Shown piece by piece: positions 3,040 to 31,840 of a stretch of DNA of 64,000 bases. The translations under genes were made by a program, and so were the position numbers. The notes beneath the pieces were generated by a model that searched no databases, had not been told where the DNA came from, and worked only from the letters and a program-made list of their open reading frames with translations. Where the stretch lies: positions 13,231 to 77,230 of IMG/VR virus record IMGVR_UViG_3300050026_000282. One strand, given 5' to 3'. Source of the DNA: a virus (Duplodnaviria; Heunggongvirae; Uroviricota; Caudoviricetes). The stretch's first letter is position 1; each line of letters opens with the position of its first letter.

Positions 3040-3267
3040 TCACCCGAGAATCTTCTGCTTCCACATGGGCCAGGTTTTCACCTCGGCCGACGCCCTTTCC
3101 AGAAAGGCGTCGAAGCGGGCCTTGTCTTCCAGCCGGTCTAGCTCTTCCAGCGCGTCAAGCAAGAAGTGCTCCAGGTCGGAACGCTTGCCAAAGGCAGCCC
3201 GTGGCTGCGTCTTACCGTCCTGGACAATGCAGTGCCAGCCGCCCCTGGTTTCAACTCGGTAACTCAT
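3040..3267 (-). CDS. hypothetical protein (75 aa)
   Basis: Internal start MSYRVETRGGWH of track ORF 3040..3504; ATGA overlap with the methyltransferase stop. Confidence 0.35.
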   Translation of the reverse strand: MSYRVETRGGWHCIVQDGKTQPRAAFGKRSDLEHFLLDALEELDRLEDKARFDAFLERASAEVKTWPMWKQKILG

Positions 3268-4022
3268 GCGGCCTCCCAGATTCGGCGGTGGATGTAGTCG
3301 GTTCGCGCCAGACCGTGTTCCTTGGCGATCTCGTCGCAGTAGTGCTTGTCGAGTTCGATCAAGGTGCAGGAAAGACCGAGTGCCTTGCAGACTCGCAACG
3401 TTGTGCCAGTTCCGCCGAACGGGTCGATCACTGATCCTCTGGGCGGCGTCGTCAGCTTCAGGCAGCGTTCGACTAGGCCCTCGTTGAGTTGGGTCGGATG
3501 CCAAGAGCGCCGCTGCTTGCTGTTGCCCGTCACACGAGGGAAATCAAAACAATCGCCCGGCACTCGGCCGCGAGGATCGGCCCGCTTGTCGCCGTGCTCC
3601 TGCCGCCAGGAAGCAACCCGGATTGCATCCGGGTAGAGCGGCGCGTCGGTCCAGCGAATGCGGATCAGTGGCCGGTGGTTGTTGCCCAGGTCGTGGTGGT
3701 TGTGCTGCCCGAAGGTGAAGATTTGCACGCACGGCTTCGCTTCCAGTCCGCCGGCCCGTAGTCCGACTACATCGGTGACGATCTTGCCAACCTCGAAGGT
3801 CCACTTGGCGTTGTACGAGAACCAAACGGTTTTCGCCTGGAGCACGAAGCAACTGAGCCACTTGCGGAGAAGGCCGATATAGTCGCTGTCAGAGTGACGA
3901 TCACTGTACTCGTTGTAGCCGAGGCCGATGTTATCCGGCGGGTCGGCAAACAACGTATCCCATTGGCGGCAACCGACAATGTCCAGGTAATCAAGACAGT
4001 CGCAGTTGACGAGTTGATTCAT
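3264..4022 (-). CDS. DNA methyltransferase (N6-adenine/N4-cytosine, beta-class order), motif IV reads DPPD
   Basis: FADPPDNIGLGYNEY (motif IV) near the N-terminus and IDPFGGTGTT (SAM motif I) near the C-terminus; the PF01555 assignment is from memory. The aromatic residue of D/N/S-PP-Y/F is replaced by Asp. Confidence 0.7.
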   Translation of the reverse strand: MNQLVNCDCLDYLDIVGCRQWDTLFADPPDNIGLGYNEYSDRHSDSDYIGLLRKWLSCFVLQAKTVWFSYNAKWTFEVGKIVTDVVGLRAGGLEAKPCVQIFTFGQHNHHDLGNNHRPLIRIRWTDAPLYPDAIRVASWRQEHGDKRADPRGRVPGDCFDFPRVTGNSKQRRSWHPTQLNEGLVERCLKLTTPPRGSVIDPFGGTGTTLRVCKALGLSCTLIELDKHYCDEIAKEHGLARTDYIHRRIWEAA

Positions 4023-4024
4023 GC

Positions 4025-4471
4025 CTAGCTCCGCAAAAGGGCCTCAGCGATATGCACAGCTTCATCCAGGGTCGCTACCCGGAATCCCATTGCCTCGCGG
4101 ATCATGGCGTGATCGTGAGGGTTCCCCTGCGGCTCGATGGCGACAATGATCGGGATGCCGTTGTCCCAGGCCCAGGCGATCTCCATGACGGTGCCGAGGC
4201 TCGCCTTTGTCGCGCCCAAGAGGTTTACCAGGAGCACGTCGCATCGCGTGCAGTCCCAGTGGTCGCGGGTCATAATTCCGCGCGGGCAGGCCAGAGGGTT
4301 CTCGTAGTCGTTCCCCACGCTTGTCTCGTTGGCAAGGAAGTCCTTACCCCGCATCGGGTCGAGGCTGGTGATCCCGAATGATTCCAGATCGGCTCGGACT
4401 AGCTTCCGCCAGTCGGTGCAGCCGCCGTAAGTGCAACCCGTAATTGGTCCAGCGAGATAGACGGTGCTCAT
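4025..4471 (-). CDS. nucleoside 2-deoxyribosyltransferase-like protein
   Basis: Internal start MSTVYLAGPITG with GAGGAAGAA RBS; the nucleoside 2-deoxyribosyltransferase family (recalled from memory) signature VYLAGP...W...DLESFGI..LDP ... DVLLVNL...SLGTVMEIAWAW..GIPII. Confidence 0.55.
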   Translation of the reverse strand: MSTVYLAGPITGCTYGGCTDWRKLVRADLESFGITSLDPMRGKDFLANETSVGNDYENPLACPRGIMTRDHWDCTRCDVLLVNLLGATKASLGTVMEIAWAWDNGIPIIVAIEPQGNPHDHAMIREAMGFRVATLDEAVHIAEALLRS

Positions 4472-4701
4472 TTCTTCCTCACGGCTACATAGGTCCCAAT
4501 CCAACCGCCAACTGCGAAGGCAAAGCAAGCGAGGATGCACTGCTGAACGACCAGGACGGTCGAGACGAGGATACATAGGTAAATCAGCACACTCATGTTG
4601 GCCGCGTGAACGGGCCGCTTTGCCTGCACGTCCGCGACACAGTTGGCCCAGACAATGTCCTGGGCAAAGCCACAGATAAAAGCGAGTAGAATGACCATCA
4701 T
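4468..4701 (-). CDS. small membrane protein (77 aa)
   Basis: Internal start MMVILLAFICGF... of track ORF 4468..4938, two hydrophobic helices; ATGA-coupled. Confidence 0.4.
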   Translation of the reverse strand: MMVILLAFICGFAQDIVWANCVADVQAKRPVHAANMSVLIYLCILVSTVLVVQQCILACFAFAVGGWIGTYVAVRKK

Positions 4702-4799
4702 CGGGTCTTCCTCATTCTGGCTAGCGACTCGCGCCGCTCGCGCTGCCGCTTGGCGAGTTCTCGGTTCGTGCGCGACCGCCGGATGATTGGTCGAGTCAT
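4698..4799 (-). CDS. basic micro-ORF (33 aa, MTRPIIRRSRTNRELAKRQRERRESLARMRKTR)
   Basis: ATGA overlaps on both sides place it in the coupled chain 4987->4468. Confidence 0.2.
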   Translation of the reverse strand: MTRPIIRRSRTNRELAKRQRERRESLARMRKTR

Positions 4800-4987
4800 T
4801 TGTAAAGCACCTTGATGCTGTAGCCAAAGATGGCCGCGTGTTTGGTGTATCCCATTCGCTCCGAGAACAAAGGCGGGTGTCGTCGCCGGTCTGCAACGTG
4901 CAGGCCCACTCCGAAGATGCGAAACCACCCGTAGCCATCCCCGATGCCGAACGAAAACCAACCGTAGTTACCAGCGTGGTATCTCAT
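4796..4987 (-). CDS. Gly/aromatic-rich small protein (63 aa)
   Basis: ORF track; ATGA overlap with the stop of 4984..5763. Confidence 0.3.
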   Translation of the reverse strand: MRYHAGNYGWFSFGIGDGYGWFRIFGVGLHVADRRRHPPLFSERMGYTKHAAIFGYSIKVLYK

Positions 4988-5763
4988 AGTCCCAGTTCCT
5001 CCCTGGCCCAGGCTGTACCGAAGTAGCGCCGGATGAACCGGCGTAGGTTCTCGGCGTCCGGGGCACTTCGCAGCTTCTTGATGTACTCCCAGTCGCGGGG
5101 CGACCCTGACGAAATGATGATCTTCATTACCCGCCCGGTCTGGTACTTGAGGAACTCTCGCATCTGGGGGTCAGTTGACTGGGCGGCTTGGGGCACGCAC
5201 ATGGAATAGACGGCAAGCTCCAGTGCATACCGAACGGTCTCGCCACGGTCTGCGATGCCGAGAGCCATTCGGGCATTCGCCCCGTTGGCATAGGCAGAGA
5301 GTTCATCAAAGAGCCTGCACAGCGGCTTGTCCTGCCAGTACGGCTCCTGTTGGTAGAAGTAGAGGTTGTAGACGCCGCCCTGCAATGACGGTGGGATGTA
5401 GCCGGCGACGGTCGAGAGCGTGGTCCCTGGCTCTTGGATTAAAGCGGCTCGATCCTGTAGCACATAGAAGGCTGGGCAACGGTATGTGTCTCGCAAGACC
5501 GAGTTGATCCCGTGCGTGCCTTCGTGAACCCATCCGACCAAGTCGTCCGGGTCTCGGTAAGGATTTCCGGCCAGCAAGTGGCTCTCGATGTCCCTCACCA
5601 CGGGCGGCAAGTCACCTACTGGCCGGACCGCCGGGACTCCCGTCCAGGTGATCGGGATGCTCGTGAACACCTGCGGTGACGGCAACGGATTGAGGGCTGC
5701 CGCGAGGACTCCGACCGCTATGGCGACACCGCAGGCTACGATATTCAGTTTGTCGTGAGTCAT
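4984..5763 (-). CDS. membrane-anchored HExxH protein (putative zincin-like metallopeptidase)
   Basis: N-terminal hydrophobic helix then VGWVHEGTHGINS (HExxH). Confidence 0.45.
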   Translation of the reverse strand: MTHDKLNIVACGVAIAVGVLAAALNPLPSPQVFTSIPITWTGVPAVRPVGDLPPVVRDIESHLLAGNPYRDPDDLVGWVHEGTHGINSVLRDTYRCPAFYVLQDRAALIQEPGTTLSTVAGYIPPSLQGGVYNLYFYQQEPYWQDKPLCRLFDELSAYANGANARMALGIADRGETVRYALELAVYSMCVPQAAQSTDPQMREFLKYQTGRVMKIIISSGSPRDWEYIKKLRSAPDAENLRRFIRRYFGTAWAREELGL

Positions 5764-6555: not shown

Positions 6556-7539
6556 TTATCCGCGATAGCGGCTCCGGGTGATTTCGTGGAAGAAGTCCTC
6601 TCGGCTCGAACCATCCGATTGCAACCCGACTGCCGAACTGTCGAGCGTCTCGCACCGTGCGTCGGACACGGCTTTGGTTAGGTCCGGGAAGATATGCCCG
6701 CTGGTGATCGCGGCCCAGCAGCGCTTGATGCGGGCGGCCAATTCCACTTGATAAGTGGAGCTAACCCTGGCCCGGTAGCCCGCCACGCGAAGCAGCGGCT
6801 TGTAGCCGGTCGGTTTGGCGACGATCTGATGGATGGACATGACCACGTCATCGTCACCAATCTTCTCGCCCAAGGCCCAGCCGTAGAGTGAAAGCTGGTC
6901 GGCCCAGGCCGTGTTGGACGTTTCCAGGGGGTACTTGTTGACGGTCATTCCGCCGTGACGGTAGGGGATGAACTTCTCGTGTTCCGTGCCGTGACTCTTC
7001 GAGTGCTTGATGGCATCGTAGCCGTCTCGGCACAGCATGTAGCTCGGATGCGGGCTGGTCGCGCTCTTGCTGCAATAGCCCGACAGCTTCCAGTCATGCA
7101 CAATGTCAACTTCGGTGACGAATTGGCAGTCCGGTTTTCCGGTGAAGGGGACACCGTCAATAACAGCGTCCACAGTGAACTCGAAGCGGGGCGGCTTCTT
7201 AGCCGCCTTCAGCAGTGTCAGAATCTCGCTGTAGAAGCCAGAGAGACGGTAGGCGTCGAAGATGTAATCGACTTCGCCCAGCGCCCAGTCGCGGTTCTGG
7301 GGCTCCACTTGGGACTCGAACAGGGCCTCGAAGCTGTACTTCGGGTCCGAACCAGCCCCAAATAAGTCCGCATGTAATGCGGACTTGACCCTGGCGTCGA
7401 AGACCGAGCCGGCAGCCGCCGGCCGCTCTTGCGGAATACGGGGCGACCGATTGTTGCTGAGGTACTTCAGGTAGAACTCGTCCTGGTTCTTCTCCCAGAG
7501 TGAAAAGCCAGAGTACGAAAGGCGCTGAATGGTTCTCAT
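6556..7539 (-). CDS. PD-(D/E)xK-family nuclease-like protein
   Basis: GKPDCQFVTEVDIVHDWK resembles the D...(D/E)xK core. N-terminus SYSGFSLWEKNQDEFYLKYL resembles the start of Cas4/RecB-like exonucleases. Internal ATG (MRTIQRLSYSG) ATGA-coupled to 7536 stop. Confidence 0.45.
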   Translation of the reverse strand: MRTIQRLSYSGFSLWEKNQDEFYLKYLSNNRSPRIPQERPAAAGSVFDARVKSALHADLFGAGSDPKYSFEALFESQVEPQNRDWALGEVDYIFDAYRLSGFYSEILTLLKAAKKPPRFEFTVDAVIDGVPFTGKPDCQFVTEVDIVHDWKLSGYCSKSATSPHPSYMLCRDGYDAIKHSKSHGTEHEKFIPYRHGGMTVNKYPLETSNTAWADQLSLYGWALGEKIGDDDVVMSIHQIVAKPTGYKPLLRVAGYRARVSSTYQVELAARIKRCWAAITSGHIFPDLTKAVSDARCETLDSSAVGLQSDGSSREDFFHEITRSRYRG

Positions 7540-9229: not shown

Positions 9230-9377
9230 AACCTTGGAACCTTTTCTGTTTAGGTGCGTCTTCGGGATTCTCTTTCGCCATCCGGCGATGCAACCGGTTG
9301 AGTTGCTTCTTCACCCACTTGCGGAATCCGTTGTGACTCTTCCATGTTCCGTCAAGCTGACCTTTGTACGTCGCCAT
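9219..9377 (-). CDS. small basic protein (52 aa)
   Basis: Read by hand from the sequence: MATYKGQLDGTWKSHNGFRKWVKKQLNRLHRRMAKENPEDAPKQKRFQGYES; GGAG RBS; 11-nt overlap with deoC start. Confidence 0.3.
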   Translation of the reverse strand: MATYKGQLDGTWKSHNGFRKWVKKQLNRLHRRMAKENPEDAPKQKRFQGYES

Positions 9378-9669
9378 CCAGGTACTCCTCGGGCAGGAAG
9401 TAGTGCGGCTCTAATCCTGCGACGTTGTAAATGATGATCTCGTTGTGGAACTCCACGCCCTCGAAGATGTCCAAGGGCAGCGACATGATGCTCGTTATCT
9501 TGGCCCCGCAATCTCGCAGCCATCGCCAGCGCTTACTCTTCCGACGCTGGTTCAAACGGAAGCCCATCGGGACGAACAGGGCGACAGGAATGTCTTTGCC
9601 GAACAACTCGATGATGTGCTCCAGGAACACCTCGGGATATAATCGCTTGCCGGGCGCGCCGTTGAAGGG
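9352..9669 (-). pseudogene. C-terminal fragment of an N6-adenine methyltransferase gene split by the RIT element
   Basis: Minus strand from 9669 reads (P)PFNGAPGKRLYPEVFLEH... The upstream in-frame stop lies inside the element IR. Confidence 0.6.
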
Positions 9670-9698
9670 CGGGTTTTATGTGGCGCATTCAGTTATGT
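9670..9698. repeat. RIT terminal inverted repeat, left copy (reverse complement of ACATAACTGAATGCGCCACATAAAACCCG)
   Basis: Perfect 29/29 match to the reverse complement of 13035..13063. Confidence 0.8.
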
Positions 9699-9766
9699 GG
9701 CGTCCAGCACGAATCGCCAGCGATTTAAGGGATCGTTACTGTGCTGAACGCCACATAATGCGTGTC

Positions 9767-10825
9767 CTACAGGGTTCGCAGAAACTCCATGAGTCCTGGA
9801 TTCTTACGCCACGGCTTCTTCGGTGTGCCATCCTTGATTTCGCACTTTGCAAGCGCTTTGGCCTTCATTTCCAGATCGACCTCCGCATACACATTGGTCG
9901 TACTGAGACACACATGACCCAGCCAGGCTCGAATCGTGTTGATGTCCACGCGGGCTCGAAGCAAGTGGGTCGCGGTCGTGTGGCGAATCGTGTGGGGACT
10001 GACACGTTTCTTCGCCATCGACGGCAGTTTCGTTGCCACCTGAGCGGCGTACCGTTCGACCAGCGCATGAATCCCGAATCGCGTGAGCGGCTGCCCACGC
10101 CGGTTGAGGAAGACATGCTGGCATTCACCACGACGGTCAATGAGAGGTCGCAATTCGTCAACCGTCTTTGGCCACAGCGGACAACGGCGGGGCTTGTTTC
10201 CCTTTCCGTGGATGAGAACGGACGAGGAGTCGCGGTTGGATGCCACACCGAGGTCGAGGTCGCCGATCCGTACTTGGGCTACCTCGTCGGCCCGAGCACC
10301 AGTGTTGTACATAAACAGAAGTATCGCGTAGTCCCGACGGCCTTGGGCAGTGCGACAGTCGGGCGCTTTCCGCAACGCATCCATCTCGTCCTTTTCCAAG
10401 TACCCGACCAGCGGTCGCGCGACCTTCTTCGACGCGATGCTCTGAATCTGACCGACCCATTCCAGGTGTTCCGGGCCGTGCTGACCGATGAATCGCGCCA
10501 AGGAACGAATCGCAGCGAGACGCTGATTTCGTGTGGAAATCCCGCAACCGTGAGTTTTTTCCAAGTCTTGGAGAAAAGACCGGGTGCGGGCTGGCGATAC
10601 ATCCACCACAAGAAGTCGCTCGATCCGCCGGTGGGCGGCGCGAGCGACGAACGGCAGGAATTGTAGCAACGCATCCCTATAGCTCTTCTGCGTATTGGGG
10701 GCGAGATTCCGTTCGGCAACGAGGTGCTCCAACAAGAACCGGCGAACCCAGGGGCTAAGCAAATCGGTGTTAGGCATGACGGCGCTCCTTCCCGGCATAG
10801 CGCTCGAAGCGCTGGCTGGCCTCAC
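9767..10825 (-). CDS. ritC: tyrosine recombinase, RitC-like (third of trio)
   Basis: HTIRHTTATHLL (HxxR) and LGHVCLSTTNVYAEV (catalytic Tyr); upstream Arg in TGARADE. Probable real start MPNTDLL at about 10777; the track ORF overlaps ritB by 56 nt. Confidence 0.75.
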   Translation of the reverse strand: MRPASASSAMPGRSAVMPNTDLLSPWVRRFLLEHLVAERNLAPNTQKSYRDALLQFLPFVARAAHRRIERLLVVDVSPARTRSFLQDLEKTHGCGISTRNQRLAAIRSLARFIGQHGPEHLEWVGQIQSIASKKVARPLVGYLEKDEMDALRKAPDCRTAQGRRDYAILLFMYNTGARADEVAQVRIGDLDLGVASNRDSSSVLIHGKGNKPRRCPLWPKTVDELRPLIDRRGECQHVFLNRRGQPLTRFGIHALVERYAAQVATKLPSMAKKRVSPHTIRHTTATHLLRARVDINTIRAWLGHVCLSTTNVYAEVDLEMKAKALAKCEIKDGTPKKPWRKNPGLMEFLRTL

Positions 10826-11705
10826 GAAGAAGCTCGGGCGTCATGCTCAGGTACACCTGCGTGTCCCGCAAGTAGACGTGGCCGAGATAGACTGACAGGT
10901 GATGCAGGAGTCGCTGCACGTCGGCACCTTGCTGATACCAGGAGGTGAGGCGGTGAACGGCGAACGTATGTCGAAAGTCGTGAATTCGCGGTTGCTGGTG
11001 TGTGTCAGTTCGACGGATGCCCGCGTGATTGCACAAAGTTCGGAACTTCGGTTCGAGTCTCCAGTGCCGAACGGGACCGCCTCCCTGTGTCGTGAAGAAG
11101 GGGGCGTCGGCTGGCCGTCTCTTCGGCCGAGTGCGGTCGTACTGAACCAAGACCCGGTTCAGTTGCGGTCCCACGGGAACCAGTCGCGTCTTGCCGAACT
11201 TCGTGTTCCGAATCGTCAGCACGGACCCACGCAAATCCACGTCGGTGCGAGTGAGGTTTGTCGCCTCACAGATACGCAAGCCGGCTCCATAGTACAGCAG
11301 AATCATTGTGCGGATCGTCACCGGCTCCATTGTGCTGGTGCCCTGCGGATAGGACTCGATTACCCGGAGAAGACGGCGGATTTCTTCCTGTGTGTAGATG
11401 TAGGGAACGAAGACCGGCGGACGCTGCGGCATTACGGTCGGAAGAGGGGGCGTAGTGATGTGTCCTCGGCTTGCGGCATATCGGAAGAAGCACCGCAAGC
11501 AGCTCAATCTGGTGAACCACGTCTTGGTCACTGGTCTGGCTTTGCCAAGGAACGCATCCACATGCCGAACGCGAACATTGGCAATGCTGGCTCTCGGGCC
11601 GCGCGTGCGGCCGAAAGCCCGTAGAACTACCGCATCCGAGATGAAGGATGATCCAAGCGACCGTTGATAGGAGATGTACTGCTCGATCAGGCGTTGGAGG
11701 TTCAT
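10770..11705 (-). CDS. ritB: tyrosine recombinase, RitB-like
   Basis: HDFRHTFAVH and LGHVYLRDTQVYL; 311 aa; 4-nt overlap with ritA. Confidence 0.75.
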   Translation of the reverse strand: MNLQRLIEQYISYQRSLGSSFISDAVVLRAFGRTRGPRASIANVRVRHVDAFLGKARPVTKTWFTRLSCLRCFFRYAASRGHITTPPLPTVMPQRPPVFVPYIYTQEEIRRLLRVIESYPQGTSTMEPVTIRTMILLYYGAGLRICEATNLTRTDVDLRGSVLTIRNTKFGKTRLVPVGPQLNRVLVQYDRTRPKRRPADAPFFTTQGGGPVRHWRLEPKFRTLCNHAGIRRTDTHQQPRIHDFRHTFAVHRLTSWYQQGADVQRLLHHLSVYLGHVYLRDTQVYLSMTPELLREASQRFERYAGKERRHA

Positions 11706-12961
11706 AGGACACCTCCCATATCAAAGTCCGCCACCTGACGGAGGCCAACGAGATCGACCTTGGCGTAAATCCGCGTGCTGTCGGGGTCCATGTGCCCCAA
11801 TTGGTCGCCGATCTCCTTGAGTGACAGGCCGGCGGCCAGCAGTCGCGTCGCGCAGGCATGACGCAGGGCATGAGGCCCGTAGTGCGGAAGCGACACGTCC
11901 AGAGATCGCAGGCGTTTAGCAACCACTCCCCATATCGACGAGTTCACCGGCCGAAATGGAGCCCGCAGTGATAGAAACACTTCCCGATGCGATGATCGCG
12001 GTCGCACCTCTTGCAGGTAACGCAGGATGGCATCGCCGACAGATCGTATTAGCGGATAGGTGCGGACCCGTCCCGTCTTAGAAGACACAACGCGGATCAC
12101 CTCATGCTCCCAGTCGAAATCCTCCAGCCGCAGACGGCAGACCTCCCCGCGCCGGAGGCCGTAGATGGCCAGCAGCATCAGTATCGGGCGGTTACGGATG
12201 TTGGACGGCTTGTCGCCTTCAGTCATGGCAAGCAAACGCCGCACATCGTCCCACGACGGCCCCAGTGGCAACGACGCCTGCGAGAAGACCCGTGGATACC
12301 GAATCGACGCCGCCAATCCTTTACGGCACCAGCCCCTCGCTTCTGCATAACGAAAGAAAGCCCGAAGTGAGTCGGCACAACGTATAATCGTCCTTTTTGA
12401 ATAACCTTTTGGTATGAACAACTTCCGAAAGGCCATGTCAAGCCACTGAGGTGTGATCTTGTGCAGGGAATCCTCCTTGACGTGCAGTCGATTGAAGAAC
12501 TGCTTGATCCACCAACAATGATGGACAATGGTCACGGGCGACAGTTGCGCTTCATGCTCCATGTAGTCAGCAAACGCTTTGATCTTGTTCGCCCAAGGAG
12601 TCAACGGAGCAGGTCGCTCTTGCAGACGCCCGATGTACCGAAGCCACCGTATGGCAAGCGGGCAAAGAGAGCAATAGAAGCGGCGTTGGTTGGCTATCAT
12701 GCGTTCCACTTCGGCGAGAGTCAGAACCTTTCGAGGCCGAACGGCCGGTCCAATCGCGTTGGCAATCGCAAGCAGACGACTCGCGTTGACCAGCAAGGTA
12801 CTCCGGGCGTAGCCCTGATTCGCAAGATGCGTCAGGAAGGCAAGCCGCTCTTCCAGCATGGGGCCTTTGCGATAACGCGCGATTGTAATGGGACATTTAT
12901 ACAGTTGATCGAACATAGTCGAACCTCCGGGGAGAAAGGGAAAACAGAACATTCTCCCCAT
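11702..12961 (-). CDS. ritA: tyrosine recombinase, RitA-like (largest of trio)
   Basis: LRRGEVCRL, HALRHACATRLL, LGHMDPDSTRIYAKV; 419 aa with long N-terminal SAM-like/core-binding region. Confidence 0.75.
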   Translation of the reverse strand: MGRMFCFPFLPGGSTMFDQLYKCPITIARYRKGPMLEERLAFLTHLANQGYARSTLLVNASRLLAIANAIGPAVRPRKVLTLAEVERMIANQRRFYCSLCPLAIRWLRYIGRLQERPAPLTPWANKIKAFADYMEHEAQLSPVTIVHHCWWIKQFFNRLHVKEDSLHKITPQWLDMAFRKLFIPKGYSKRTIIRCADSLRAFFRYAEARGWCRKGLAASIRYPRVFSQASLPLGPSWDDVRRLLAMTEGDKPSNIRNRPILMLLAIYGLRRGEVCRLRLEDFDWEHEVIRVVSSKTGRVRTYPLIRSVGDAILRYLQEVRPRSSHREVFLSLRAPFRPVNSSIWGVVAKRLRSLDVSLPHYGPHALRHACATRLLAAGLSLKEIGDQLGHMDPDSTRIYAKVDLVGLRQVADFDMGGVL

Positions 12962-13034
12962 AGCGTAGCACCTAATTATGTGGTGCAGAAAACGGGCAAA
13001 ATGCTGAAATACGGCTGGAGGAACGAGCTAGACA

Positions 13035-13063
13035 ACATAACTGAATGCGCCACATAAAACCCG
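13035..13063. repeat. RIT terminal inverted repeat, right copy ACATAACTGAATGCGCCACATAAAACCCG
   Basis: Perfect inverted copy of 9670..9698. Confidence 0.8.
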
Positions 13064-13086
13064 TTATGTGGTCCACCACATAACGG
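13061..13086. repeat. 26-bp palindrome CCGTTATGTGGTCCACCACATAACGG at the RIT right junction
   Basis: Two inverted (C)CACATAA half-sites; same 9-mer family as the subterminal GCCACATAA repeats. Confidence 0.6.
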
Positions 13087-13422
13087 GTTGCATAGGACAA
13101 GGTCTGGGCGAGGTAAGTAATTCCACACGATACTCTCGAACTTGCCACGAACGAACTCACTGAGTTTGTTCTTGTAACCACGCTCACGTTGCACTACATC
13201 ACAACCGAACACGGCGCATCCGGCATCCCACCACGGGTCGGTGAGTCTTTGGGTCCCGATTGCAGGATCAAGGACGACCTTGTCGAAGCAGACGCCCCGG
13301 CAGTGCATCGCTGGCCAGAGGATGTCGAACAGGAATCGTGCTACACCAACGGGAGTAAACACGGTGCTGTTCTTTCGGTTGTTGTGGTAGTCGTTGCGAA
13401 CGACGGTTAAAGGACTGGCCAT
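13084..13422 (-). pseudogene. N-terminal fragment of the split N6-adenine methyltransferase (gamma-class, TaqI/Eco57I-like)
   Basis: MASPLTVV...VFTPVGVARFLFDILWP...VLDPAIGTQRLTD...AGCAVFGCDV...DLVLCN. The track ORF then reads through the palindrome and IR (CGGPHNGFYVAHSVM) to a stop at 12976. Confidence 0.6.
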
Positions 13423-24091: not shown

Positions 24092-24559
24092 TTAGACCTT
24101 ATAGGACCTGATCCGTGACGGCTGGAGCCGGGACTTGTCGAAGACGACAATCGCTATTGCTTGCACCAGGCCGCATTTCGCGTCACCAAACTTCGGACGA
24201 CCGTGAAGGAAACGAATCTCAGCGGCTTTCATGCAGTAGGTATGCCACCAGTTCGTGTTCGTATGGGCCGGGACGAGCATCACCACGACGCAGTCCGACT
24301 CAAACGCCTTCTGCACCCAACGCCTCAAACGAGCCTTATCCGAGTTGAAGGGAGGGTTGAGCCAGCAAACACCTTTCCACTCTTGCTGTAAGGCATCTTC
24401 CTCGGCCGTGTAGTAAACCGGACACTTAGCGTTGGCTGAGTCAGCAGCCAAGTCGATGGTGAAGTGAAACTCCTCATTCAGCCTGTTGAACAGGGATTGA
24501 GGAGTAGACCATGACTGGCTGCGTGACTCGAACCTCGGCTGTCTCTTGGGCAACAACAT
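24092..24559 (-). CDS. DNA N6-adenine methyltransferase, phage Dam-like
   Basis: WSTPQSLFNRLNEEFHFTIDLAA ... CWLNPPFN, the phage Dam-like signature (family assignment from memory) including NPPF. Confidence 0.75.
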   Translation of the reverse strand: MLLPKRQPRFESRSQSWSTPQSLFNRLNEEFHFTIDLAADSANAKCPVYYTAEEDALQQEWKGVCWLNPPFNSDKARLRRWVQKAFESDCVVVMLVPAHTNTNWWHTYCMKAAEIRFLHGRPKFGDAKCGLVQAIAIVVFDKSRLQPSRIRSYKV

Positions 24560-29185: not shown

Positions 29186-31840
29186 ATGCCTAAAGTCTCA
29201 GAAGCAATCGGTTCCTTCCTCCATGCCCGTGCCACCCCGGCCAACCAGGACTTGGTTGACCGGTGGAACATTGGTATGGAGGTCCAGGTCAACGTCTCGG
29301 CCGGCAATGGCGAGCTAGTGGCCGGGAAGAAAGGGACCTACAGCGATGGTGTCAATGAATGGCACTCGATCCGCATTCCCAAGAAGGCCATGAGCGACCC
29401 GGAGTTCACGGACTACGAGTTACGCTGGCCGCTCGATCTCCACGCCGAAGGCATCGGCATGACGGGCTGGGACTGGCAGGAGCGCAAGTCACGCTGGGTG
29501 GCGTTCGACGTGGATAGCATCATCGGCCATGCTGCCGGCGTCGGGATCAGCGACGAGAACCTGGAGAAGGTCAAACAAGTTGCCGGGTCCCTGCCTTACG
29601 TGGAAGTCCGCAAGAGCACGGGCGGCGGCGGGTTGCACCTTTATGTCTACTTGGATGGCATCCCGACCGCCAATCACACTGAGCACGCCGCCCTGGCTCG
29701 GGCCATCCTCGGGATGCTCAGTTCCGAGACGGGCTTCGACTTCTCCAGCCAGATCGACGCCTGCGGCCAGATCATGTGGGTCTGGCACAAGAAGATGACG
29801 GCCGGGAACAGCGGCCTGTCGGTCATCAAGCCGGCCGAGAAGATACTGACGATCAACGATCTGCCGAGCAACTGGCGGGACCATATTGAGGTCGTGACCC
29901 GCCGCAGGGCCAAACTCAAGGTCAGCGGGGTGAGCGAGGATGGGCCGTTTGAGGCCCTGTCCAGCGGCCGGCGCATGGTCCCCCTGGACGCCAAGCACAA
30001 AGAAGTGATCGATGAACTGACCCGATCAGGCTTTTCGACGGTCTGGATACCCGATTACCACCTCCTGCAAACACACACGAAGGCGCTGGAGGGCCTGAAA
30101 GAGTCGCTGAAGATCAAGGGCATCTTCAAGACCAACTCGCCGGGAAGGCACCCAGAAACGTGCAACTGCTTCTGCTTCCCCCTCGATGAAGGGGCTTGGC
30201 GAGTTTACCGCTTCTCTCCTGGCACGACCGAGGCCGAGACCTGGCAGCAGGACGGCAACGGCTGGACTACCTGCTACTTCAACCGTACCCCCGACCTGGA
30301 CACGGTGGCCCGAGTCACGGGCGGCGTCGAAGCGCCCGACAACGGCGGTTACGTGTTCTCCACGGCCGAGGATGCAGCCAAGGCCATCGAACTCCTCGGT
30401 CAACCTGTCGAGATTCCGGCAGAGTTAAAGGGGCGCGTAACCAACCTCAAGGTCCAGAAAGACGGCCGCATTTCAATCAATGTCAAGAAGGAAAAGGGCG
30501 AAGCGGCGGCCCCGCAAGGTTGGGTAAACGGTCGCGGCAAAATCCAGAAGCTCTTGAATCTGCGAGCCGAAGTCAAGGCGCAGATCGCTGACGAGAGCTA
30601 TGGCACGCACGACAAGATTATTCGGACGCTTATCACACCGCTCAATAAGGCTGCGGGTTGGGTTCTCAACACCGAGGCAGGCGACTGGTCCGACCGGCCC
30701 AAGGATGACATCAGAAGTGCGCTGGTATCGCAAGGGATGTCCAAGACGGACGCTGAAGTAGTCCTTGGCGGGGCCTGCCTGAACCCGTGGCGGCTCGTCG
30801 TCCAGCCCTTTCAGCCCGAGTATCCAGGCGGCCGTCAATGGAACAGAGAAGCGGCACAATTCCGCTACCAGCCGAGTGAAGGCGAGCACCCGCACTGGGA
30901 CATGATCCTCCAGCACTGTTTCGGTGATCTCGACAATGGCGTCAGAAATCATCCTTGGTGTCAGAAGCACAACGTCAAGAGCGGTGCTGAGTACGGGCTG
31001 TTGTGGGTAGCCAATCTCTTCCGCTTCCCGTTCAAGCCGTTGCCTTACTTGTTCCTGTACGGCGGTGAGAACTGCGGCAAGTCCACGCTGCACGAGTCTC
31101 TCCAATTCTTGATGACGAAAGGCATTACCTGTGCCAACAACTCGCTCACCAATCAGAGCAATTTCAATGGTGAGTTAGCGGGGGCCATCCTAGCCTATGT
31201 CGCCGAGTTGGACATTTCCAAGTATCCGGGAGCACTCAACAAGATCAAGGAATGGGTAGTCAGTCCGATGTTGCCGATCCGGCAGATGCGCACAGACACC
31301 TACATGATGCCCAACACGTTGCACTTCATCCAGACCGCGAACTCGGCTGATTTCTGCCCGATCTTTCCCGGCGACACTCGCATCACCATGATCTGCGTGT
31401 CGCCGTTGGGAGACAAAGAGATCGGTCGGGATAAGTTCCACGAGTTTCTCACGGCTGAAGCGCCACATTACCTTTACACGCTACTGAACATACCGCTTCC
31501 CGAGCCGGAAGGTCGGTTGAGAATCCCGGTCATTGATACGGGCAACAAAGCGCGAGTGCAGGACAACCGGCGTCCGTTGCTTGAGCAATTCATTGCTGAG
31601 CACTGCCACGCGATCCCTGGCGGAAAGGTCCGCTTCAAGGACTTATACGAGAACTTCATCGAGTGGATCGGCCACGAAGAACGGACCAAATGGACCAAGC
31701 GGAGAGTGTTACAAGAACTGAAGCTACCGCATGGCGTTCATGCGGAGAACATGAAGTGGGTTGGCAATATCTCATGGGATGATTCTCCAGTGGAAGATTC
31801 TCGTCCTTGGGTGGCCGAGAACGGAAGATTAAGGCAATAA
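29186..31840 (+). CDS. primase-polymerase (AEP-like N-terminus) fused to D5/P4-type SF3 helicase
   Basis: RKSTGGGGLHLYVYLDG hLHlh-like motif. C-terminal Walker A YGGENCGKSTLHES and Walker B-like AYVAELD. ATG at 29186 preferred over the GTG at 29141, which lies in the IR. Confidence 0.75.
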   Translation: MPKVSEAIGSFLHARATPANQDLVDRWNIGMEVQVNVSAGNGELVAGKKGTYSDGVNEWHSIRIPKKAMSDPEFTDYELRWPLDLHAEGIGMTGWDWQERKSRWVAFDVDSIIGHAAGVGISDENLEKVKQVAGSLPYVEVRKSTGGGGLHLYVYLDGIPTANHTEHAALARAILGMLSSETGFDFSSQIDACGQIMWVWHKKMTAGNSGLSVIKPAEKILTINDLPSNWRDHIEVVTRRRAKLKVSGVSEDGPFEALSSGRRMVPLDAKHKEVIDELTRSGFSTVWIPDYHLLQTHTKALEGLKESLKIKGIFKTNSPGRHPETCNCFCFPLDEGAWRVYRFSPGTTEAETWQQDGNGWTTCYFNRTPDLDTVARVTGGVEAPDNGGYVFSTAEDAAKAIELLGQPVEIPAELKGRVTNLKVQKDGRISINVKKEKGEAAAPQGWVNGRGKIQKLLNLRAEVKAQIADESYGTHDKIIRTLITPLNKAAGWVLNTEAGDWSDRPKDDIRSALVSQGMSKTDAEVVLGGACLNPWRLVVQPFQPEYPGGRQWNREAAQFRYQPSEGEHPHWDMILQHCFGDLDNGVRNHPWCQKHNVKSGAEYGLLWVANLFRFPFKPLPYLFLYGGENCGKSTLHESLQFLMTKGITCANNSLTNQSNFNGELAGAILAYVAELDISKYPGALNKIKEWVVSPMLPIRQMRTDTYMMPNTLHFIQTANSADFCPIFPGDTRITMICVSPLGDKEIGRDKFHEFLTAEAPHYLYTLLNIPLPEPEGRLRIPVIDTGNKARVQDNRRPLLEQFIAEHCHAIPGGKVRFKDLYENFIEWIGHEERTKWTKRRVLQELKLPHGVHAENMKWVGNISWDDSPVEDSRPWVAENGRLRQ

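Follow-up and report, generated by a model that had tools for sequence, protein, structure and literature searches.

The stretch of DNA analysed here (the window) comprises 64,000 nucleotides, positions 13,231 to 77,230, of the IMG/VR virus record IMGVR_UViG_3300050026_000282, which is assigned to the Caudoviricetes. Within it, a recombinase-in-trio (RIT) element interrupts a gene for a predicted adenine methyltransferase inside the NPPF motif (motif IV). The three recombinase genes of the element, ritA, ritB and ritC, follow one another on the minus strand and are framed by a perfect inverted repeat, to which a 20-bp palindrome between two 6-mers is added on the ritA side (Table 1).

The interrupted methyltransferase gene and the element

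The N-terminal part of the methyltransferase gene starts at 13422 and is translated as ...FTPVGVARFLFDILWP...VLDPAIGTQRLTD...DLVLCNP down to 13084, from where its open reading frame (ORF) continues as far as a stop at 12976 within the element; P0049, a 148-aa gene call on a 77-kb JGI contig, is identical to it. Removing 9670-13083 (3,414 bp) in silico joins it to the C-terminal part in a 218-aa ORF reading ...LVLCNPPFNGAPGKR..., in which motif X (TPVGVARFL), motif I (VLDPAIGTQRL) and motif IV (LCNPPF) succeed one another in the order X-I-IV. An in-frame excision of 3,414 bp is possible in any register from 9670-13083 to 9676-13089; both halves of the gene are open, and the N-P codons are retained on both of them after the split. 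A first-pass annotation, made from the sequence alone, had described an insertion that splits an adenine methyltransferase in NPPF and leaves the target reconstructable, which is what was found. The deletion proposed there, 9674-13083, is 4 bp off in its limits: as its 3,410 bp are not a multiple of three, it shifts the frame and leaves CGGGCGGG, and one repeat copy must be removed as well.

A protein database search with the joined ORF retrieved 388 homologues at E<=1e-3, which among the matches listed are 200-220 aa long, cover 95-97% of the query and are up to 73% identical to it; the database holds no intact copy of exactly this gene. In a 16-sequence alignment, NPPFNG is uninterrupted and there is no indel or gap at the joint, C111 and N112 of CNPPFNG are invariant, and both prolines as well as F115 are kept in at least 90% of the sequences. 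The joined ORF is a single protein that aligns end to end with hundreds of intact homologues. Its two flanks belong to one gene, which is uninterrupted in two contigs of related phages, L004 (88 kb) and L005 (94 kb), and lies there in the same neighbourhood (sigma-like, ligase, small ORF, methyltransferase, DeoC, DUF2061, Metallophos). Neither of the two outcomes that the first-pass annotation had named as refuting, a joined ORF that does not align as one methyltransferase or flanks from different genes, was thus observed.

The AlphaFold (AF2) model of the joined protein (pLDDT 78.5, pTM 0.80) consists of a single Rossmann-type domain, for which the best Foldseek matches in the PDB are M.BseCI, CamA, the M subunits (HsdM) of type I systems and M.TaqI (probability 1.0, TM 0.53-0.65). 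At the sequence level, PHROG 799 ("DNA methyltransferase") matches the joined ORF with an E of 1.9e-10, and many of its homologues carry a precomputed PF02384 match. The ORF itself has no match at E<=0.01 in Pfam and NCBIfam, reaching 14.6 bits for PF02384 (E 0.021) against a curated cut-off of 20.4, and a sequence search of the PDB gave nothing meaningful. By its predicted fold, the joined 218-aa protein is a small gamma-class N6-adenine DNA methyltransferase. With the PF02384-like enzymes of this class (M.TaqI, M.BseCI, CamA, the catalytic domain of HsdM) it shares the motif order X-I-IV with NPPF and the Rossmann fold, predicted here, whereas its length of 218 aa, the lack of a recognisable target-recognition domain, the sub-threshold Pfam score and a glutamine in motif I set it apart. 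This glutamine, at codon 58 (13249-13251, minus strand), is unique to this copy and takes the place of the second glycine of DPxxGxG (DPAIGTQRL), which is present in 119 of the 120 other family members retrieved; a change from GGN to CAA requires at least two base changes.

All three proteins of the element match PF00589 (E 1e-19 to 1e-29); their scores as Xer-like recombinases stay under the cut-offs of those families, and NCBIfam GmtY gives a weak match only. Read from the sequence, the signatures are GLRRGE, HALRH and LGH..Y in RitA, GLRICE, HDFRH and LGH..Y in RitB, and GARADE, HTIRH and LGH..Y in RitC; the motifs GxRxxE, HxxRH and LGH..Y would have the catalytic roles. The ritA/ritB junction, CTATGAAC, is an ATGA overlap, and the ritB/ritC junction, ATGCCTAA, is an overlap of 8 bp if ritC starts at 10777; the longest ritC ORF has a GTG start at 10825 (9767-10825, 352 aa). 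In RitA, about 125 residues precede the SAM-like domain at 127-210, which fits the presence of two core-binding domains. Smyshlyaev, in 2021, reportedly described RitA as having two core-binding domains and RitC as having an extra C-terminal helix.

RIT elements are about 3.3-3.5 kb long, are framed by inverted repeats of about 28-34 bp and have a palindrome that overlaps one of the ends (PMC3414803, PMC10214605). The insert in the window measures 3,382 bp from repeat to repeat, and it has a perfect 29-bp inverted repeat and a 32-bp palindrome at the ritA end. It is also found as a unit elsewhere, since the contig L024 carries, in another gene, a copy that is 97-98% identical over 1.2 kb, and L033 provides a third context. 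With all tested hallmarks present, the insert is a RIT element. The L024 copy and the L033 junction also show that it has recently moved between contexts. Among GenBank phages, RitA has matches of at most 30% identity; the only full-length RitA-like proteins in cultured-phage records are those of the Ralstonia phages ON170274 and ON170278 (30% identity, 95% coverage).

Table 1. Positions of the recombinase genes, element ends and methyltransferase fragments in the window.
Feature	Position	Strand	Basis
Methyltransferase, C-terminal part: PFNGAPGKRLYPEVF... to stop at 9352-9354	9352-9669	-	ORF list, translation
6-mer CGGGTT at ritC-side junction; AACCCG (N-P codons) on the gene strand	9670-9675	.	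sequence
ritC-side terminal region: inverted-repeat arm, direct TTATGTGG at 9676 and 9693, inverted motif at 9751-9758	9676-9758	+	repeat analysis
ritC, tyrosine recombinase; likely start ATG at 10777	9767-10777	-	ORF list, profiles
ritB, tyrosine recombinase, 311 aa; ATGA overlap with ritA	10770-11705	-	ORF list, profiles
ritA, tyrosine recombinase, 419 aa; extra N-terminal region of ~125 aa before SAM-like and catalytic domains	11702-12961	-	ORF list, profiles
ritA-side terminal region, mirror of the ritC side: motifs at 13050-13057, 13033-13040 (imperfect, CAACATAA) and 12976-12983	12976-13057	-	repeat analysis
Inner 6-mer AACCCG, inverted copy, between ritA-side repeat and palindrome	13058-13063	.	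sequence
20-bp palindrome TTATGTGGTCCACCACATAA = TTATGTGG-TCCA-CCACATAA	13064-13083	.	sequence; conserved in ~80 related junctions
Outer 6-mer CGGGTT at ritA-side junction; overlaps last two codons (N-P) of the N-terminal fragment	13084-13089	.	sequence
Methyltransferase, N-terminal part, M1-P113 (motif X, motif I, N-P of motif IV)	13084-13422	-	ORF list, translation

Element ends and related copies

The terminal inverted repeat is perfect over 29 of 29 bp (9670-9698 and 13035-13063). The 64-kb window contains the 8-mer TTATGTGG seven times, with 0.65 occurrences expected, and all seven are at the element ends, each of which has two direct copies of this type 17 bp apart and an inverted copy about 58 bp further in. 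The 6-mer CGGGTT is present three times, as two direct copies at the junctions and an inverted one inside the ritA end, and the palindrome forms together with its two flanking 6-mers (13058-13089) a perfect 15+2+15 palindrome of 32 bp. Of the direct repeat, the first-pass annotation had seen the bases CGGG at the left terminus and in the right flank; the repeat is real, but its length is 6 bp and not 4 bp, and the third, inverted copy and the 20-bp palindrome had been overlooked. The mobile unit of 3,408 bp is made up of the 3,382 bp from repeat end to repeat end, one 6-mer and the 20-bp palindrome; with the additional 6-mer of the occupied site, the length to be removed comes to 3,414 bp.

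In the window, AACCCG occurs 30 times on both strands together. A second exact copy of the 11-mer of the target, TGCAACCCGCC, lies unoccupied at 29627-29637 (minus strand), so the 6-mer alone does not determine insertion. The Dam gene of the window (24092-24559) also encodes NPPF, as AAC CCT CCC TTC, and is intact.

For comparison, RitA relatives were collected, and pattern scans for the palindrome-6-mer-repeat arrangement added 91 loci with about 80 distinct junctions. The RitA relatives, 66-76% identical, come from Planctomycetota genomes and uncultured viral contigs. Among the related junctions the 6-mers vary widely; in 26 of 79, outer and inner 6-mers are exact reverse complements of each other, and in 19 more five of the six positions match. 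Where the far end is known as well, all three 6-mers are equal in the window and in L012, the outer one equals the far one and the inner one is different in L031, L045, L052 and L095, the outer equals the inner with a different far one in L047, L089, L062 and L096, and the inner equals the far with a different outer one in L094. These are all the patterns expected from two sites with a 6-bp exchange, and their presence fits an exchange region of this length that tolerates mismatches. The first-pass annotation had offered two readings of the repeat, as target duplication or as crossover core; the 6-mer data favour a crossover (coupling) sequence of 6 bp, in which identical 6-mers seem to be favoured yet not required.

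The palindrome itself lies, depending on the copy, at the ritA or the ritC end, and its 4-bp centre occurs in both orientations. L031 and L045 have bodies that are 99.68% identical and inverted relative to the palindrome, the centre is flipped from TCGG to CCGA, and the inner 6-mer of L045, GAATTA, is the junction 6-mer of L031. In the same way, the window has the palindrome at the ritA end with the centre TGGA, and L024 has it at the ritC end with the centre TCCA. Both switches are as predicted if a circle carries two crossover sites that can be used alternatively. The far end of L024, which would test the carry-over of the 6-mer, was searched for and not found, as the contig ends 1.2 kb inside the element.

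Several related loci have structures of their own. L095 and L105 have RIT bodies that are 100% identical, a common left flank and common outer and inner 6-mers; their far 6-mers are GATCTG and GAATTA, which suggests an exchange of the right flank between copies. L006 (3928-6679; also L007) has an insert of 2.76 kb between the ritC-end 6-mer GAGCAC and the 20-bp palindrome, at the predicted cleavage position; it carries its own tyrosine-recombinase-like ORF (3975-5078), and a solo palindrome is left beside the other half of the target gene. L050 has the palindrome-6-mer-repeat module at both ends (1025-1062 and 7145-7182) of a 6.1-kb structure, and the ends are similarly spaced in L043 and L076; these structures may be RITs with cargo or two nested elements. 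L020, a contig of Candidatus Kuenenia stuttgartiensis, has a partial RIT that is about 85% identical over 2.2 kb to the element of the window (88% at the RitA C-terminus) and looks like a truncated relative in an anammox planctomycete.

Proposed recombination model and alternatives

The RIT element probably entered the N-P codons (AACCCG) in motif IV of the gamma-class methyltransferase gene through conservative recombination by tyrosine recombinases. Its excised form would be a circle with the junction ...CGCCACATAA-AACCCG-TTATGTGG-TCCA-CCACATAA-CGGGTT-TTATGTGGCG..., in which the joined ends would read CCACATAA-AACCCG-TTATGTGG-TCCA-CCACATAA-CGGGTT-TTATGTGG. This junction would contain two inverted crossover sites that share the palindrome, each with 8-bp arms (CCACATAA/TTATGTGG) around a 6-bp exchange region and thus of the classical tyrosine-recombinase form, with inverted arms and an asymmetric spacer. 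After recombination of one of the two sites with a 6-mer of the target, one end of the element would retain the palindrome along with the unused site, and each junction would hold a copy of the 6-mer. The 6-mer of the former site, which can travel with the element if identical 6-mers are favoured without being required, would bias the next insertion towards a similar sequence. As the three 6-mers of the window are identical, recombination between the junctions would restore the ORF exactly. The model predicts the circle junction GAATGCGCCACATAAAACCCGTTATGTGGTCCACCACATAACGGGTTTTATGTGGCGCATTC (78 bp as inverted repeat-AACCCG-palindrome-CGGGTT-inverted repeat) and its isomer with the centre TGGA, as well as the empty site (...CTATGCAACCCGCCCTTCAAC...; CCAGACCTTGTCCTATGCAACCCGCCCTTCAACGGCGCGCC). 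The sequences establish the insertion with its exact limits, its target, the architecture of the sites and how 6-mers and palindrome behave from copy to copy; the circle, the cleavage positions and the roles of RitA, RitB and RitC in these steps are predicted ones. The inactivation of the methyltransferase, which the first-pass annotation had stated, would follow from the split within motif IV, but exact excision would bring back the reading frame.

Several points weigh against this reading. A circle or tandem junction (repeat-6-mer-palindrome-6-mer-repeat) is absent from all fetched loci, so the circle stays a predicted form. Strict staggered exchange between unlike 6-mers would predict one old and one new 6-mer in each daughter, and copies in which the outer 6-mer equals the far one and the inner is different would then require that the 6-mers were identical at integration or that mismatches were corrected. 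The orientation of the palindrome centre follows the adjoining end in 18 cases against 9, that is, not absolutely, so that an extra inversion step is needed, which the two-site model allows without demonstrating it. In some copies (L006-L010) the palindrome is missing or displaced. L008 and L010 carry the element between long inverted flanks, of at least 2 kb and 91-92% identity in L008 (1280-3257 and 6580-8554) and of about 2.7 kb and 71-76% identity in L010 (3193-5929 and 9246-11984), which may come from chimeric assembly or may be a true inverted duplication or the trace of a replicative or hairpin pathway. As for the target, Q58 in motif I suggests relaxed constraint or a defective enzyme, and the gene may have been impaired before or since the insertion.

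The alternative that survives best, although it is unlikely, is transposition through hairpin or fold-back intermediates, as proposed for the RITs of Sphingobium, with the palindrome as a replicated hairpin tip (flip/flop). It would account for palindrome centres in both orientations at both ends, for perfect 32-bp palindromes at the junctions and for the missing circle junction, and the inverted flanks of L008 and L010 could be taken in its favour. RIT DNA was also enriched in an exonuclease-resistant fraction, but paired-end read mapping could not determine a circular form (PMC5737581). Against it, the swaps between near-identical copies (palindrome end, body inversion and inner 6-mer) follow directly from a circle with two sites and have not been derived from any explicit hairpin scheme, and the inverted flanks are 8-28% diverged and can be explained by assembly through an element that is present both ways round in related phages.

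Less probable still is a true target-site duplication, in which CGGGTT would have arisen by a staggered cut and gap filling, as with DDE transposons, while the inverted copy inside would be a constant component of the element. The equality of outer and far 6-mers in the window, L012, L031, L045, L052 and L095 agrees with it. The two differ, however, in L047, L089, L062, L096, L094, L105 and L068, which argues against an obligatory duplication, and the inner 6-mer is different between L031 and L045, which are 99.7% identical, and equals there the junction 6-mer of the other copy. Moreover, tyrosine recombinases are the only enzymes that the element encodes, and such enzymes exchange strands conservatively, without DNA synthesis.

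Both junctions of the window recur in the independent assembly SRR35914902 (Logan) on the separate contigs L001 and L121, of which the former ends 173 nt into the element and the latter starts 146 nt inside it. Breaks at such positions, just beyond the terminal repeat regions, are expected of a repeat, and the interior of the element is presumably common to several genomes in that sample. An old insertion passed on by inheritance, or a contig assembled chimerically from phage and host DNA, either of which would be uninformative on recent mobility or target choice, is highly improbable: assemblies do break within the element (L001, L121, L027 and L024), which is clearly a repeat in these samples, but both junctions were assembled independently, the 97-98% identical copy of L024 lies in a different gene of another viral contig, L033 has the same palindrome junction in a third context, and in L027 the 94% identity of the element end, against 62% in the flanking methyltransferase DNA, excludes shared ancestry of the insertion.

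Target choice and relation to known systems

The rest of the window contains a tailed-phage gene set (large terminase, portal, major head protein, tape measure, PolA, helicase, primase and ligase), so the host of the element is a tailed phage, probably of Planctomycetota. The three methyltransferases counted by the first-pass annotation are present: an N6_N4 gene (3264-4022), the Dam gene and the split gamma-class gene.

Related RITs repeatedly enter the D/N-P codons of unrelated methyltransferase families, and the compared sequences show that the choice of site is not random. In L027, the element end (134 of 142 bases shared with the window) lies at the same codon (PDLILCNP^, with ^ marking the insertion point) of a homologous methyltransferase, and the low identity of the flanking DNA makes these two independent insertions. 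Other reconstructed targets are a D12-class methyltransferase (LIYADP^PYVS, PF02086; L034 is homologous), a methyltransferase of the N6_N4 type (PF01555, E 9e-27; CIFADP^P...) and an N6_Mtase (PF02384) that is interrupted in motif I (MMISDP^CCGTG); L023 and L080 resemble, by eye only, DPPY and GNPP methyltransferases. In Pfam, the joined targets found matches; the N-terminal-only flanks of L034, L052, L093, L094 and L033 found none. By a rough count, made with no formal test, methyltransferases of four Pfam families make up about six of the roughly 20 distinct target genes, a share that appears far above any background frequency of such genes. At the DNA level, the targets have in common RAYCCG followed by CC.

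Strict specificity for motif IV of methyltransferases is ruled out by L024, L033 and other relatives in unrelated genes. The target of L024 (NDVVFFNP) is a collagen-like tail-fibre ORF and that of L033 a secreted protein, and further sites outside methyltransferases are PLVER^CADV in a small phage protein, EVPETIACA, APSIFVGV and those of L012 and L096. Neither do the copies that target methyltransferases form a clean clade by identity (80-84% against 80-83%, with L052 at 70%). This leaves a preference for RAYCCG with CC after it, together with strong enrichment of methyltransferases. In a subfamily of 3,472-bp RITs, 34 junctions (those of L061, L057, L031, L045 and L095 among them) lie at ...LLFYHxRLxCxxVI(D/E)L^K.GKF, which is the catalytic (D/E)xK motif of PD-(D/E)xK nuclease genes with DUF1016_N and YhcG_C (Pfam E 1e-40 and 1e-28). 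In the PLVER group, the inner, non-coding 6-mers are synonymous E-R codons, which fits an origin from homologous sites in other genomes. Recurrent gene-specific insertions, in radC and the tnpA of IS66, have already been noted for proteobacterial RITs (PMC2864759).

A tentative extension, which is possible rather than probable, is that RITs retarget themselves: 6-mers acquired at one site and kept in the two inverted sites would direct the next insertion to an identical short sequence, so that lineages would stay faithful to the codons of a conserved catalytic motif, such as (D/N)PP(Y/F) and DPxxGxG in methyltransferases of four Pfam families and (D/E)xK in DUF1016/YhcG nucleases. Spreading through phages and hosts, such elements would disrupt modification and nuclease genes specifically and in an exactly reversible way, and in the present phage the element would switch one of three methyltransferases on and off. 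RITs would then be motif-homing elements that disable genes of the restriction-modification type, which would bear on epigenetic escape by phages and on the turnover of defence genes.

The RITs of Cupriavidus metallidurans CH34 and other bacteria (Van Houdt 2009/2012; Ricker 2013) share with the present element the same-strand A-B-C trio with ATGA and 4-8-bp overlaps, a length of about 3.4 kb, an inverted repeat of about 28-34 bp, a palindrome that overlaps one of the ends, and the interruption of genes, with related RITs entering the same gene in different hosts (radC, IS66 tnpA; PMC2864759, PMC3414803). Unlike them, the copy in the window resides in a tailed phage, and its relatives were found in Planctomycetota genomes and uncultured viral contigs; a RIT survey of 2012 listed no phages. 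In PMC3414803, mobility of RITs was undemonstrated and recombination sites were unconvincing beyond the 28-29-bp inverted repeat and the overlapping palindrome, and in PMC5737581 circles were not detectable and hairpins were suggested. Mobility and sites are unsettled in these two and in PMC10214605, whereas the present case defines the target, the ends, a 6-bp exchange sequence and the 20-bp module; Ricker et al. 2013, which lies outside this literature, may already describe 6-bp and palindrome features or a target preference. The element is of a known kind in an unusual host, and its value lies in the clean reconstruction of the empty site and in a testable model of recombination and targeting. 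RITs are widespread, and the insertion in the window gives an unambiguous empty-site sequence. With the approximately 80 related junctions, candidate att sites can be defined that consist of 8-bp arms around a 6-bp exchange region, together with the 20-bp palindromic module, and the model, with its predicted circle and empty-site sequences, is falsifiable.

GInt and SE elements (strand-biased circularizing integrative elements) likewise have several tyrosine-recombinase-like genes in a row and are site-specific, and the transposition intermediate of SE carries 6 bp of flank (PMC10214605). They differ from RITs in having four conserved genes, cargo and no inverted repeats of the RIT type; sequence kinship was checked only via NCBIfam GmtY, with its weak match.

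The behaviour of the RIT 6-mers appears to resemble that of the coupling sequences of Tn916 and Tn554 and of the 6-bp flank that SE elements carry. Elements such as Tn916/CTnDOT and Tn554 (6-bp core; tnpA/B/C) transpose by tyrosine recombinases with no true target duplication, through an exchange region of 6-7 bp that may differ between the partners, and bases flanking the old site are carried to the new one as coupling sequences. Both the combinations seen among outer, inner and far 6-mers and the swap between L031 and L045 fit transposition of this type, for which the cleavage points and a heteroduplex would be presumed. In contrast to Tn916 and Tn554, RITs have long terminal inverted repeats, which Tn554 lacks, three recombinases and no accessory or transfer genes, and their extra palindromic module would provide them with two inverted crossover sites.

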